Below are positions 25,805 to 56,282 of a stretch of 64,000 nucleotides of DNA, in pieces. Both the position numbers and the translations under genes were made by a program. This DNA comes from an uncultured Clostridia bacterium (GTDB lineage: Bacteria > Bacillota > JAAYKD01 > CAYOCI01), in NCBI GenBank assembly GCA_964402415.1, contig CAYOCI010000001.1:14323-78322 (forward strand). Reading direction: 5' to 3'. The stretch's first letter is position 1. Each line of letters opens with the position of its first letter. The notes beneath the pieces were generated by a model. That model saw only the letters and a list, made by a program, of their open reading frames with translations. It searched no databases and was not told where the DNA came from.

Positions 25805-26170
25805 TCAGTTGTTTTCTTTGAGAGACACCATTAGTCGGGTTACTAGGCGCACCACATCACCGCAGAGGGAGCGAAGCTCAGTGCAGGGTTCATCGGCGAT
25901 GTATCCAAGATCGCGGCTAAGCAGACAGAAGTAGTCGACCTCATTGGCTGAGCCTCTACTCATGGATAGGAAATGACGGAAGTCTTTCGAGGTGACGCGC
26001 GAGTGTCCTTCGACTATGTTGGCTGCCACGGATGCTGCCGCCCGCCTCATCTGGTTGACGAGACCATATTGTTCCTGAGACGGGAACTGGGCAGTTTCTT
26101 TATACACGGATAGAACCAATTGGTGCGCCTTCTGCCAAGCGAATAGGTCCTCGTAACGACGTTGTGTCAT
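25805..26170 (-). CDS. four-helix-bundle protein (TIGR02436 / Avd-like / so-called 23S rRNA intervening-sequence protein), copy A
   Basis: Family signature YEDLFAWQKAHQLVLSVY...QEQYGLVNQMRRAAASVAANIVEGHSRVTSKDFRHFLSMSRGSANEVDYFCLLSRDLGY. AGAGGAGG SD. Confidence 0.8.
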   Translation of the reverse strand: MTQRRYEDLFAWQKAHQLVLSVYKETAQFPSQEQYGLVNQMRRAAASVAANIVEGHSRVTSKDFRHFLSMSRGSANEVDYFCLLSRDLGYIADEPCTELRSLCGDVVRLVTRLMVSLKENN

Positions 26171-26320
26171 CTGGCTTCCTCCTCTTTTTGTGTACCATCT
26201 AGGAATCGAGACGAGCAGGCGAAACGCCTGCTCGTTCTAACTAATAATCTTCTAAACCTTGGCGGTTCTCCGCCCGTGTCCTACCCACTTGGGGGCTTGG
26301 TGGCGTGGTGCCTTGGTGGC

Positions 26321-27328
26321 TTAGTTCATGGTCTTCTCTATTGCCACGCCAGTATAGTAATGCGTCAGTATCTCGTCGAACCTGCGGCCTTGCTTGGCTT
26401 GCCCGTCGGCGCCGTATTGGCAGAGGCCTACGCCATGGCCAAAACCAGTGGTGGTGATCTCAAGGCTCTCGCCATTGAGGCGGGATGTGAACGTAGTGGA
26501 GTTGATGCCGAGATAGGAGCGCAGGTCGACCGCGCGATAGCTCTTGCCGTTGACCTTGACGGTCTTGGCGCTGCCAGTGGCGGTGCGTTCGGTGATCTGC
26601 AAGAGGCCTGAGCCGGTAAGGGCAGCGATGGAGATGGTCGGGTCGGCAGCCTTTAGCCGTTGGGCGACGCTGGCGAGCGGTATGTATACGGTCTCCTGGT
26701 AACGCGGTGAATGGGTATCCCATGAGCACTGGACGCTGACTAGATAGGGGATCTTGGCCTGGCCTGGCCACGCCTCCCACGAGTTCTCGGTCATCCCTCC
26801 GCAGGTAGAGTGATACACCGCGTCGATTGGCTTGGCCTGGTAGGTGACGATCAGATCCTTGGTAGCGTCAACGGCATCGGAGATCCGCTTCCAATTGATC
26901 AGATAGGAGAGCTGGCTGCCCCAGGTCTGCTTGAGCTCGTCTTCGCGGACGTAGGCTTGGCAGTGGGCGGGATCGGTGCAGAGATCGGCCTCAGGGTGAT
27001 CCTTGCGCTTGGTCTGATCTTGAATCCGTTTGATGGTATACGTGCGGGCGACAACTGCCTGGGCCTTCAGCGCTTCCATCTCGAAGCTGGCTGGCATCTC
27101 GCCAGCCAGAACGTTCTTCAAGTAGTCCTCGAGCTGGACTTCGATGGTCTTCTTCGCCTTGTGGTCATAGACTTTCATCAGCTCGGGAGCGGCGATGTCA
27201 GGAACCTCGGTGAAGACCTGAGGTTGGGTCGGTGCAGGTGCGGGGGGCTTGGTGATGGCCACGAGCCCGGCGGGCAAGAGTATGGTCACGAAAAAGATAC
27301 CGGCTAACAGTAGCGCAACGTATTTCAT
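26321..27328 (-). CDS. spoIID: stage II sporulation protein D (SpoIID, lytic transglycosylase)
   Basis: Signal/TM N-terminus MKYVALLLAGIFFV and a SpoIID domain (AQAVVARTYT...CQAYVREDE...STCGGMTENS). ATG at 27328 has a GGGGAGGTG SD. The in-frame upstream extension is repeat DNA. Confidence 0.8.
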   Translation of the reverse strand: MKYVALLLAGIFFVTILLPAGLVAITKPPAPAPTQPQVFTEVPDIAAPELMKVYDHKAKKTIEVQLEDYLKNVLAGEMPASFEMEALKAQAVVARTYTIKRIQDQTKRKDHPEADLCTDPAHCQAYVREDELKQTWGSQLSYLINWKRISDAVDATKDLIVTYQAKPIDAVYHSTCGGMTENSWEAWPGQAKIPYLVSVQCSWDTHSPRYQETVYIPLASVAQRLKAADPTISIAALTGSGLLQITERTATGSAKTVKVNGKSYRAVDLRSYLGINSTTFTSRLNGESLEITTTGFGHGVGLCQYGADGQAKQGRRFDEILTHYYTGVAIEKTMN

Positions 27329-27492
27329 AGGTCGTCCACCTCCCCTACATGGGTATGAGGAGGATGGGGGAAGTATGACGGTTAGAGTCCACAGACCACA
27401 GTCCACAGTCCACAGTGGGTACGGGAGTGAGCGTGAGAGTTCACAAGACCACAGGCCCACAGGTCGGCGGACGGTTAGACAGTTGCAGCGGA

Positions 27493-27876
27493 TTACGACC
27501 GGGCAAACGACGGTTCCTTAGCCGTCTGAATGGACGCCATCAGTTTCGTTACCAGTCTCATCACTTCATCGCACAGGGATCGCAGCTCAGTGCTTCGTTC
27601 AGGCGTCATATAGCCCAGATCTCGGCTTAGGATGAGGTAGTAATCAACCTCAGCTACGGAGCCTCGGGCGATGGCCAGGAAGTGCTTAAAGTCCTTCGGC
27701 GTAACGCGAGAGTGTCCCTCAGCTATGTTTGCTGCGACAGAGACTGCGGCACGCCTCATCTGCGAGATGAGGCCAAACTGTTCGGCTGCTGGATACTTAG
27801 CTGTTTCCCTATAGACCCAAATACTAAGCTGGTGTGCCTTCTGCCAGACTATGAGGTCTTCATAGCGACGGTACAT
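27493..27876 (-). CDS. four-helix-bundle protein (TIGR02436 / Avd-like), copy B
   Basis: Paralogue of copy A (MYRRYEDLIVWQKAHQLSIWVY...EQFGLISQMRRAAVSVAANIAEGHSRVTPKDFKHFLAIARGSVAEVDYYLILSRDLGY). Confidence 0.8.
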   Translation of the reverse strand: MYRRYEDLIVWQKAHQLSIWVYRETAKYPAAEQFGLISQMRRAAVSVAANIAEGHSRVTPKDFKHFLAIARGSVAEVDYYLILSRDLGYMTPERSTELRSLCDEVMRLVTKLMASIQTAKEPSFARS

Positions 27877-28002
27877 TTCTTACCACTCCTTAACCTTTTG
27901 CCCAAACATAACATGGCAGGCCGGAGCCTGCCAATGCGTTTCAGGTATGATTTTAGCAACGCTACTGTGGTCTGTGGTCTGTGGACTGTGGACTCTCCCC
28001 TA

Positions 28003-54456: not shown

Positions 54457-55320
54457 CTATTTTCCTTCCTTCCCGATCGCTGCGCACAGCGCTGCTATCG
54501 CGACCTCGATCTGCTGATCATCGGGTTCGCGGGTCGTCAGCTTCTGCAGGTAGAGCCCAGGGACGGTAAGGGCATTGAGCCAGGGCAGTTTGCCGCTGCC
54601 GAGGATGCGCAGCACTTCATATGAGAAACCAGCTACGACCGGCAACAAGGTCAGACGATAAACCAGCCTCATCCATATCGATGGCCAGCCAAAGAAGGAG
54701 AAGAAGACGCTGCCAACGATCATGACGATCAGTAGGAAGTTGGTCCCGCAGCGGGGATGGAGCGTCGTGTAGCCCTTGACATTGGCGACGGTCAGCTCGC
54801 GACCAGCTTCGTAGCAGTGGATGGTCTTATGCTCAGCGCCGTGGTATTCGAAGACCCGGCGGACATCTTTCATCAAGGAGATCGCCGTTACGTAGGCGAG
54901 GAAGAAGAGAATACGGATGAAGCCTTCGACCAGGTTGCGCCCCAAGCTGCTCATAGCCTGCGTGCGCACCCAGCGCATCAGGACGGTGGGGGCTAGGAAG
55001 AAGAGGCCGATCCCCATGGCTAGCGACGTCGCCATGAGAAGGATCATCTGCATGTCGGTGAGCTGTTCATCTTCGCCAGCGAAGATGTTCGCGGAGAAGG
55101 TGAGGGTCTGCATGCCGAGGATCAGCGACTCGAAGAAGGAGACCACTCCACGGATCAGCGGCCAGCCCACGATGGGGTAGCGCTCGCGCAGCGGGATCGT
55201 CTCATGCTGGTCGATGGTAATCTCGCCATCTGGCTTACGGCAGGCGATGGCCATGCGCCGGGGGCCTTTCATCATCACCCCTTCAATCACAGCCTGCCCA
55301 CCATAGGTTGGTTTAGACAA
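54457..55320 (-). CDS. DUF1385 family protein (YqhQ-like)
   Basis: Family N-terminus YGGQAVIEGVMMKGP with multi-TM helices after it. TTG start at 55320 after an AAGGGGG SD. The upstream ORF-track extension is translated from CCCCTCG repeats. Confidence 0.5.
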   Translation of the reverse strand: MSKPTYGGQAVIEGVMMKGPRRMAIACRKPDGEITIDQHETIPLRERYPIVGWPLIRGVVSFFESLILGMQTLTFSANIFAGEDEQLTDMQMILLMATSLAMGIGLFFLAPTVLMRWVRTQAMSSLGRNLVEGFIRILFFLAYVTAISLMKDVRRVFEYHGAEHKTIHCYEAGRELTVANVKGYTTLHPRCGTNFLLIVMIVGSVFFSFFGWPSIWMRLVYRLTLLPVVAGFSYEVLRILGSGKLPWLNALTVPGLYLQKLTTREPDDQQIEVAIAALCAAIGKEGK

Positions 55321-55515
55321 AAGGAAGCCCCCTTTCTGGGGAGTCCATCGCCCCTCGCCCCTCGCCCCTCGTGAGAGTGCGATGGAAGCGGGGTACGGAG
55401 GCTCCATGCTGTAGCCCTTCAATAGGTGGGCTGACGGCGATGACGGATTGCTTCATGGCGCCAGTTCAGTACACGAAAAACAAGCAGAGCGATACGCTCT
55501 GCTTGATGAGGACTG

Positions 55516-55728
55516 CTAGATCTTTTCGCTCTTGAGGCCGTATTTCTTCATGAAGCGCTCAACGCGTCCGCCGGTATCGATCAGCTTCTGCTTGCCGGTG
55601 AAGAAAGGATGGCACTTGGAGCAAAGCTCAACACGAAGTTCCTTCTTCGTGGAAAGGGTCTTCCAAGTTTCCCCACATGCGCAGATCACTTGGCACTCCT
55701 GCGTCCTGGGATGAATCTTTTCTTTCAT
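55516..55728 (-). CDS. rpmE: 50S ribosomal protein L31
   Basis: 70-aa product [64 protein letters not shown] carrying the Cys motifs. Confidence 0.85.
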
Positions 55729-55928
55729 CTATCTCACCTCTTTCCGAGTTCATAAAGCCTGTAATAGACATCTGACATTATAGCACTTATTGCATTGCCA
55801 ATGCAAGTGAAAAAGAGTCCCTCGCCCCTCGGCCCTCGCCCCTCGTGGGTTTACGCGTCCCAAGAAGCGACTCGGTCTACCTAACACGTCTCTATGATAC
55901 ATGTTATTATATCCCATGGAGGTGTGGT

Positions 55929-56282
55929 ATGAAAAGAAGATATGCAGAACTTCTGGCTTGGCAGAAGGCGCATAGGTTAACAATCGATATGTATCGAGTC
56001 TCACTATCGTATCCAAAGGATGAGCAGTACGGTTTGGTTAGCCAGATCAGGCGGGCTGCATCCTCGATCCCGGCCAACATTGTTGAGGGGCATTCGCGAT
56101 CTAGCACCAACGAGTTTAAGCATTTCCTGTCCATTGCGAGAGGTTCTGCAGTCGAGTTGGACTACTTTCTTCTGCTTAGCAAAGATCTTGGTTATCTTGA
56201 AGACGATATAGTTGACCAGCTTTGCATGCAATGCGATGATGTGATTCGCCTAATCACTGCCCTGATGGTTTCGCTGAAATAG
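55929..56282 (+). CDS. four-helix-bundle protein (TIGR02436 / Avd-like), copy D; the only clear plus-strand gene
   Basis: Paralogue (MKRRYAELLAWQKAHRLTIDMY...EQYGLVSQIRRAASSIPANIVEGHSRSSTNEFKHFLSIARGSAVELDYFLLLSKDLGY). GGAGGTG SD, an A/T-rich upstream region, and its own intrinsic terminator. Confidence 0.8.
   Translation: MKRRYAELLAWQKAHRLTIDMYRVSLSYPKDEQYGLVSQIRRAASSIPANIVEGHSRSSTNEFKHFLSIARGSAVELDYFLLLSKDLGYLEDDIVDQLCMQCDDVIRLITALMVSLK

Follow-up and report, generated by a model that had tools for sequence, protein, structure and literature searches.

What kind of element places four copies of one small gene in four different slots of an otherwise conserved gene order? The question is raised by a 64,000-nucleotide stretch (here called the window) from the genome of an uncultured Clostridia bacterium (contig CAYOCI010000001.1), which contains four paralogues of the PF05635/TIGR02436 family of Avd-like four-helix-bundle proteins. 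The family is very large: at least 7,997 of the 8,000 candidates scored in a protein search had E <= 1e-10. Its members have so far been taken for ribosomal proteins, for cas-associated genes or for junk in intervening sequences, and to our knowledge it has no known function outside the Avd proteins of diversity-generating retroelements (DGRs). We hypothesise, giving the idea about an even chance, that the four genes are the cargo of stem-loop cassettes of the type known as 23S rRNA intervening sequences (IVSs), and that each protein is the partner of the class of repeat array that flanks its own gene.

The four genes are identified by profile hidden Markov models (HMMs). Copy A (25805-26170, minus strand) encodes 121 residues, copy B (27493-27876, minus) 127, copy C (43710-44117, minus) 135 and copy D (55929-56282, plus) 117, and the proteins are pairwise 50-68% identical. 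All four score 116-137 bits against TIGR02436 (cutoff 24) and 120-141 bits against PF05635 (cutoff 33.8). Copy A is further supported by an orthologue in a relative, and copy B by an AlphaFold2 model. No fifth paralogue was found in the window by tblastn. By Pfam, the neighbours of A and B lie in the order M23 peptidase, A, SpoIID, B, MurA; C lies between Upp and a dCMP deaminase; and D lies between RpmE and GlpX, both of which are on the minus strand, opposite to D. Good Shine-Dalgarno (SD) sequences precede all four starts (GGAGG, AAGGAG, AGGAGG and GGAGGTG). The true start of spoIID is probably at 27328 and not at the first in-frame GTG. The stop codon of copy C overlaps the GTG start of the dCMP deaminase gene. 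Two signals accompany copy D: a promoter-like site (55881-55910) and, at 56284-56311, a hairpin that has a T-run and resembles a terminator. The initial annotation, made from the nucleotide sequence, had described four TIGR02436 paralogues here, each with its own SD in an intergenic slot of conserved gene order, and copy D as a plus-strand unit with its own terminator; all of this is borne out by the open reading frames (ORFs), both HMMs and the Pfam neighbours.

It is striking that every one of the genes lies between inverted arrays, each made of about four 7-8-nt units in tandem, and that the unit differs from gene to gene: CACCAAG(G) for A, CCACAG(A/T) for B, GGCATCA for C and CCCTCG(C/G) for D. 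The genes had previously been called repeat-flanked, and repeats are indeed present, but their nature as inverted heptamer or octamer arrays had not been recognised. The arms of A, B and D are 25-33 nt long and 88-100% complementary, and arms of this kind can close a stem of 28-35 bp. An IVS is expected to have terminal inverted repeats able to form a stem of some 20 bp or more, and A, B and D have them. The cassette runs from a 5' arm of about four 7- or 8-nt units through an SD and the four-helix-bundle ORF to a 3' arm with the reverse complement of the first array.

The 5' arm of cassette A (26288-26322, minus) begins immediately after the spoIID stop codon and consists of about 4.4 tandem 8-nt units of the CCACCAAG type (class b), detected by Tandem Repeats Finder and conserved in the same relative. 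Over 32 nt it is 88% complementary to the 3' arm (25686-25717, minus), a reverse-complement array of the CTTGGTG type. In cassette B, the 5' arm (27964-27994, minus) has 4.4 units of CCACAG(A/T) (class c). Two 3' arms within 27386-27462 (minus) match it, both upstream of the likely spoIID start: CTGTGG x4.4 (27386-27416) and, at about 27440-27462, a degenerate copy. The predicted RNA fold of cassette B closes on the arms, with a stem of about 35 bp (z = -4.2). Cassette D also folds so that it closes on its arms (z = -6.0), which pair over 25 nt with 96% complementarity. In its 5' arm (55816-55850, plus) the outer position is taken by a single AGTCCCT unit (class a), after which comes CCCTCG(C/G) x3.9 (class d), and its 3' arm (56338-56399, plus) has units of the CGAGGGG type at 56338-56362, followed by a class-a remnant, CTAGGGACTCTAGACTAG, at about 56378-56399. 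The promoter-like and terminator-like sites of D are both inside these arms. Cassette C is less compact. Its 5' arm (44146-44176, minus) belongs to class e, consists of GGCATCA x3.3 and ends on the outside in AGCCCGAAGG, as class-e arrays do, and the closest complementary class-e array (43237-43264, minus) is found only beyond the dCMP deaminase gene, so that the arm pair encloses both C and the deaminase.

This architecture is found across the family. We sampled 71 genes of the family, drawn from the window, from metagenomes and from viral contigs, and for each gene scored the best inverted repeat shared by its two 220-nt flanks. Significant inverted repeats whose arms are tandem arrays flank 47 of the 71 (66%), with a period of 7 in 43 and of 8 in four, while only 3 of 281 displaced control positions (1%) have such arrays, two of these three being inside the window itself. 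The median length of an array beside such a gene is 4.4 units (n=156). The unit sequences vary freely around a weak common consensus, nnYAGSW, which carries 4.38 bits of information, compared to 3.44 +/- 0.16 in shuffles, and the arms have an intrinsic polarity (YAG in the 5' arm, CTR in the 3' arm). The same anatomy surrounds copies located between flagellar rod genes in AT-rich Clostridia (loci L009 and L018). In Xanthomonas campestris the genome contains 186 GGGAATC arrays, 70 of them in convergent pairs, and a supplementary table of that study lists a four-unit GGGAATC array against the start of XCC0516, the member of the family that has been crystallised; the authors are silent on the adjacency (PMC4692102). 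Among the 8,000 candidates scored in our last protein search there were none from Geobacter, Nostoc or Xanthomonas, and the Xanthomonas link therefore rests on the published supplement.

In the window the abundant repeated unit is the array and not the gene. The arrays with a 7- or 8-nt period number 49 (0.77 per kb) and belong to about ten unit classes, and most of them form inverted pairs around 90-200 nt that contain no ORF. A class-e hairpin between upp and glyA (44839-45070) is one of about ten such ORF-less elements, the remaining ones being at 36819-37002, 41671-41901, 47101-47253, 48751-48895, 51625-51812, 52915-53091, 57435-57591 and 58277-58453. Also without an ORF is the minus-strand hairpin at 52348-52558; it consists of two perfect class-d arrays of 4.1 and 4.3 units and lies within prmC, in frame between the PrmC_N and methyltransferase domains. 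One inverted pair is long-range: two class-h arrays (CTTAACTCTTAATT) at 50361-50402 and 54204-54248 enclose three host genes (span 50361-54248). The loops of ten ORF-less elements are unrelated to each other, except for a 14-nt core shared by two (a REP core, described below), so the repeated unit is the array and not a body of the kind found in MITEs (miniature inverted-repeat transposable elements). The abundance of arrays, the family-wide architecture and the match to the 23S rRNA IVS were all missed by the initial annotation.

Two other readings of the ORF-less hairpins were tried and rejected. They are not decayed copies of the gene, as tblastn found no remnants at E <= 10, and they are not one MITE family, since the loops have no common sequence.

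It is worth adding some details of the two host genes that contain arrays. The prmC gene (51777-53111) encodes about 444 residues, with an insert of about 70 residues between its domains and a second element right after the ATG. The sua5 gene (48903-50255) encodes 450 residues with several inserts, among them the array at 49181-49209, in frame. Both ORFs are open in the relative too, at 411 and 473 residues respectively. These in-frame elements recall the Rickettsia palindromic elements.

Arrays and family genes occur together. We compared 80 Firmicute spoIID loci, taken from GTDB representatives, for which the best SpoIID match was 45% identical. The array density is 0.36 per kb in the four loci that have a family gene and 0.05 in the 76 that do not (P ~2e-15). 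The ORF-less arrays also tend to carry the unit of the nearest cassette: across 34 environmental loci, 35% of them match the local cassette unit with at most one mismatch, compared to 4.3% for the cassettes of other loci. In the window, more than ten class-e arrays are found within 8 kb of copy C, and both the class-e arrays and copy C are missing from the homologous 21 kb of a close relative (locus L181).

Comparison with relatives indicates how the cassettes and arrays turn over. The closer relative is GCA_964540595.1 (loci L180 and L181), with PrfA 92% identical and about 83% identity at nucleotide level. A second and more distant one (locus L178) has SpoIID 80% identical. In slot A, L180 has an orthologue of copy A with 89% protein identity. 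The dN of 0.05 and dS of 1.10 (dN/dS 0.05) place copy A under purifying selection in the same regime as tal, prfA and upp. In L178, the hairpin in slot A lacks an ORF and belongs to a further unit class. L181 has an empty slot C, with only 66 nt between upp and the deaminase gene, and in the window copy C sits directly behind the SD and ATGGC that in the relative serve the dCMP deaminase. Slot D is filled in the relative by a protein 66% identical to copy D, and the synonymous sites of this pair are saturated beyond the background (pS 0.80, compared to 0.51-0.62). The arms there are class a (CTAGGGA) in the relative and class d (CGAGGGG) in the window, with class-a remnants outside. We read this as a cassette that was probably replaced within an existing array. 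The initial annotation had suggested a selfish or mobile family, and had proposed to look for empty sites in relatives. Empty and ORF-less sites are found, at slot C in L181 and slot A in L178, and turnover at the slots agrees with mobility; 'selfish' goes further than the data, as copy A is vertically inherited at its slot and under purifying selection.

The arrays themselves also change. The prmC hairpin is orthologous in L181, because the loop aligns, but all the units of both arms differ, being AGTCCCT in L181 and CGCCCCT in the window. Another orthologous array has the 7-nt unit AGTCCAC in the window (53009-53032) and the 8-nt unit AGTCCACA in L181 (11102-11133), a one-base difference that is present in every unit. 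Such changes of the whole array between orthologues imply a concerted rewriting of arrays. At several places where the window has an ORF-less hairpin, L181 has a short spacer free of arrays (193 versus 31 nt, and 198 versus 16 nt).

Slots are also filled and emptied further afield. The flagellar-operon slot is filled in L009 and L018 and contains a mini-palindrome in L003. In L009, an Anaerosolibacter congener, a full cassette occupies 16812-17290 between flgG and the next gene, while at the same place in Anaerosolibacter carboniphilus (L003, 16534-16575) there is only GACTAGAC-AA-GTCTAGC, about one unit per arm, which may be what a deletion left behind or else a target hairpin in its smallest form. 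In the 80 more distant spoIID loci, spoIID never has a family gene beside it. Two longer PrfA homologues (P0129 and P0130, 481 and 439 residues) were considered as candidates for in-frame insertions and rejected, as they contain internal duplications of the central domain; they are probably assembly chimeras.

Two other regions of the window are of interest here. The flgF/flgG region (20573-22706) contains arrays and a REP-like core, without a four-helix-bundle gene, and is the slot that holds such cassettes in Anaerosolibacter and L018. Either certain operon slots are used repeatedly, or the occupation of this one is very old. Between the M23 peptidase gene and spoIIID (24318-24515) there is a 108-nt tandem unit, present in 1.8 copies that are 93% identical, which is itself made of class-c 7-mer and 8-mer arrays; at the same site L180 has a different array, of the CATGGTGG type.

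The proteins have a recognisable fold. Copy B matches 2GSC (XCC0516) in phmmer with E = 8e-21, and its AlphaFold2 model (pLDDT 87.9) has four helices. Foldseek superimposes the model on 2GSC with a TM score of 0.8-0.9 and an rmsd of 0.8 A, so that a four-helix up-down bundle like that of XCC0516 (2GSC) and BT_0352 (2RLD) is predicted for copy B. The entries of these two homologues contain five chains each. An RxxxSxxxNxxE motif has been reported previously for the family (PMC3936711), and in an alignment of ten sequences R43, S47, N51 and E54 are invariant or nearly so. More distantly, Foldseek matches the model to 4DWL and to Avd subunits in the DGR ribonucleoprotein 8UB7 (TM ~0.73-0.87), so the comparison to Avd suggested in the initial annotation gives a structural match. 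The sequence match to Avd is slight. Only copies B and C are hit by the Avd models, with 20-25 bits against NF033474 (cutoff 80) and about 22 bits against PF22296 (cutoff 40), and apart from the latter PF05635 is the only Pfam match of the four copies.

The scan of the window covered every ORF of at least 220 residues that is not nested in a longer opposite-strand ORF. It found no reverse-transcriptase domain. The scanned ORFs belong to housekeeping, polysaccharide, flagellar or V-ATPase families, except for one without a match (12854-13960). A DGR was therefore rejected, as had been said of a classical one, on the basis of Avd models below their cutoffs and the absence of a reverse transcriptase from the scan; template and variable repeats were not searched for. 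PADLOC found no defence system in the window. There were zero Rfam matches, hence no rRNA in the window and no known RNA family for the arms or the cores.

Two blocks of these genes deserve comment. The region from about 4000 to 16000 has a lower G+C (0.47-0.52, compared to about 0.58-0.60 elsewhere) and is nearly without heptamer arrays. It encodes UDP-glucose dehydrogenase, a pyruvyl transferase, a Wzy-like protein, glycosyltransferases, an ATP-grasp ligase and a DegT aminotransferase, and the scarcity of arrays in this polysaccharide block fits a recent acquisition. The V/A-type ATPase operon (A and B subunits, AC39 and the 116-kDa subunit I) occupies 31357-39651, a position between the upp side and the ywmB-murA side at which Bacillus has its F-type atp operon.

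On the basis of the cassette anatomy in the window and across the family, the spread of ORF-less arrays, and the turnover between close relatives, we propose the following mechanism. In a transcript that spans both arms, the arms would pair to form a double-stranded stem, which by analogy with Coxiella could be cleaved by RNase III, and a stem that RNase III can cleave would make a cassette tolerable within an operon or an rRNA gene. The Avd-like protein, pentameric in its solved homologues, would bind the repeated units of its own arms. It may then act as a trans factor that maintains or spreads its own class of array, a role like that of a REP-associated tyrosine transposase (RAYT), carried out without a transposase. 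We infer both the cleavage and the binding by analogy.

Several points weigh against this proposal. Arrays could not be detected around 24 of the 71 sampled genes. Perfect 29-bp arms lie inside the coding sequence of prmC, a gene that seems intact and that would be severed if RNase III cleavage were obligatory. The promoter-like and terminator-like sites of copy D are inside its arms, and its own mRNA may therefore not contain the stem. Among sense-strand mismatches between arms, G-U-compatible pairs (23) are no commoner than A-C pairs (29), so there is no visible selection on a sense-strand RNA stem, and a role at the DNA level fits equally well. Within the window, the proximity of an array class to its cognate gene has a permutation rank of 2 of 24, which is suggestive only. 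The presence of the same class nearby could stem from local gene conversion, without a role for the protein. We know of no strand-transfer chemistry for a four-helix bundle, and both RNA cleavage and protein binding are argued for here from other systems.

A mechanism at the DNA level, either an unlinked HUH enzyme that acts on the hairpins or conversion of arrays, is thus a serious rival. In its fullest form, which we consider unlikely, the arrays are hairpin DNA repeats of the MITE type or of the repetitive extragenic palindromic (REP) type, moved or converted by an unlinked enzyme such as a Y1/HUH transposase, and the ORF is passive cargo or prefers arrays. A possible enzyme exists in the more distant relative, where slot B (murA/spoIID; L178 44-925) is occupied by a 293-residue Y1_Tnp gene (IS200/RAYT-like) with a C-terminal extension; in the 64-kb window there is no Y1_Tnp homologue. 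The window does have a second repeat family, consisting of GTAG, then the palindrome GGGCGCYGC..GCRGCGCCC, then CCTAC. This occurs at nine sites (21820-21845, 30594-30619, 36010-36020, 36927-36937, 48193-48203, 49420-49445, 49555-49565, 52427-52437 and 52981-53006), a count that was matched in none of 100 shuffles, and it is present also in L178, L180 and L181. Such GTAG-palindrome cores have the form that is usual for the REPs used by RAYT transposases. They are often located in the loops of heptamer arrays, and form an inverted pair inside sua5.

The arms also have a polarity that fits a strand-dependent recognition of hairpins: in 5' arms YAG is found 110 times and CTR 34 times, and per element 27 have YAG in the 5' arm and CTR in the 3' arm while six have the reverse (P = 3e-4). 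The lack of a G-U excess points the same way, and so do the class-d arms of cassette D nested in class-a remnants, as expected for an insertion into pre-existing arrays. Against an unlinked enzyme, there are no target-site duplications at three filled-versus-empty sites, where the flanks are short and diverged; the unrelated loops of the ORF-less elements are not copies of one MITE; and passive cargo leaves unexplained the tie between arrays and PF05635 genes, both around the genes (66% versus 1%) and in the spoIID loci (0.36 versus 0.05 per kb).

It could also be that the arrays are regulatory or RNA-processing sites of the host, such as sites bound by a global regulator or by a nucleoid protein, or elements that insulate or stabilise transcripts, and that the genes tolerate them or are attracted to them. 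For the paired arrays of Geobacter metallireducens, which have four units of 7 or 8 nt, a role as sites of a global regulator or of IHF/HU was proposed (PMC2700814), and in Xanthomonas most repeat sites are retained across species (PMC4692102). Cassette A's arms differ less between the window and L180 than the spacer beside them does. We nevertheless find this account quite improbable, since about ten unit classes within 64 kb, and switches of class between close relatives, are unlike the site of one conserved regulator, arrays are present in frame within prmC and sua5, and related loci without a family gene have few arrays.

That the genes are ordinary, anciently fixed paralogues or orphaned Avd genes of a DGR, with the repeats as incidental slippage, is highly improbable and largely refuted: copy A is orthologous in L180 and under strong purifying selection, B and C match NF033474 and PF22296 weakly, and the introductions of two papers propose polymerase slippage for heptamers, the most over-represented long simple repeats of bacteria, but slot C is empty, slot A is without an ORF in L178, the cassette in slot D appears to have been replaced, the Avd scores are far under the cutoffs with no reverse transcriptase in the scan, and slippage cannot yield complementary arrays around 66% of the genes when only 1% of controls have them.

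We therefore return to the cassette proposal, in which the protein partners its own arrays. A wider version of it, put forward tentatively and with more doubt than conviction, is that PF05635 proteins are the dedicated partners of bacterial heptanucleotide arrays in general (the STRR of cyanobacteria, GGGAATC and others), with each paralogue recognising the arrays of its own unit and maintaining or spreading them. This merges two separate puzzles, the orphan family and the heptamer arrays, into one testable hypothesis. If it is true, there is a widespread gene-plus-repeat system similar to that of RAYT genes and their REP doublets (REPINs), built on an Avd-like pentamer that is not a transposase, and it would account both for the over-representation of heptamers in bacteria and for the role of the orphan family outside DGRs. 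It also suggests caution, as the operon context of such a gene would be a poor guide to its function.

The closest of the known systems by protein family is the IVS with an S23p gene, found in Coxiella, Leptospira and others, which has stem-closing terminal repeats of about 28 bp, as here. The Coxiella 23S IVS has a 28-bp terminal stem with three to four tandem GACAGAT units 5' of the S23p ORF; RNase III cuts the stem in vitro, at the first unit, and the ORF is thought by the authors to be decaying and probably untranslated (PMC4990558). The unit GACAGAT fits the nnYAGSW consensus of the sampled family arms. Family genes have been reported within cas operons, and also within 16S and 23S rRNA insertions of the candidate phyla radiation (PMC11270868). 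Unlike rRNA IVSs, all four cassettes of the window are located between protein-coding genes, with no rRNA in the window by Rfam, and in this genome the arrays have multiplied without ORFs. Unlike the Coxiella ORF, the genes have strong SDs, and at least copy A is under purifying selection.

By organisation, the cassettes resemble the RAYT/REPIN system. There, a gene is flanked by inverted copies of a repeat, doublets of the repeat are dispersed in matching classes, and the gene is inherited vertically. Here too, a single-copy gene has inverted short-repeat flanks, ORF-less doublets of the same class are dispersed in intergenic DNA, different gene copies have different repeat classes, and at least one copy is vertical and under purifying selection. 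The dispersed repeats match the class of the local gene (35% versus 4.3%). Unlike a RAYT, the protein is a four-helix bundle of 120 residues and not a Y1/HUH tyrosine transposase, and because of this the family does not belong to the RAYTs. Unlike a REPIN, the repeat is a tandem 7-nt array in place of a single palindrome, and the REP-like GTAG palindromes coexist with it as a separate family. The DGR Avd protein (bAvd of Bordetella phage BPP-1) has the same four-helix-bundle fold according to the model, but differs in having only 12-14% sequence identity, in Avd HMM scores below cutoff, and in that the window has no reverse transcriptase. The marks of a MITE or insertion sequence, a common internal sequence and target-site duplications, are not found in these elements.

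The arrays themselves resemble known heptanucleotide arrays: the cyanobacterial STRR, GGGAATC of Xanthomonas, the pairs of Geobacter metallireducens and TAACTGA of the Beggiatoaceae (PMC4692102, PMC2700814, PMC4679880), of which the Beggiatoaceae arrays, like those of Geobacter metallireducens, were interpreted as regulatory sites (PMC4679880, PMC2700814). All have about four 7-nt units, are mostly intergenic with some intragenic, are often in convergent pairs and have genome-specific units. In the openly searchable literature, to which our search was confined (subscription literature lying outside it), we found no statement of a general link between PF05635 genes and heptamer arrays, or of bracketing by them. 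Partial precedents are known separately. What differs here from the published accounts of heptamer arrays is a direct and statistical tie to PF05635 genes: a gene of this family is normally bracketed by inverted arrays.

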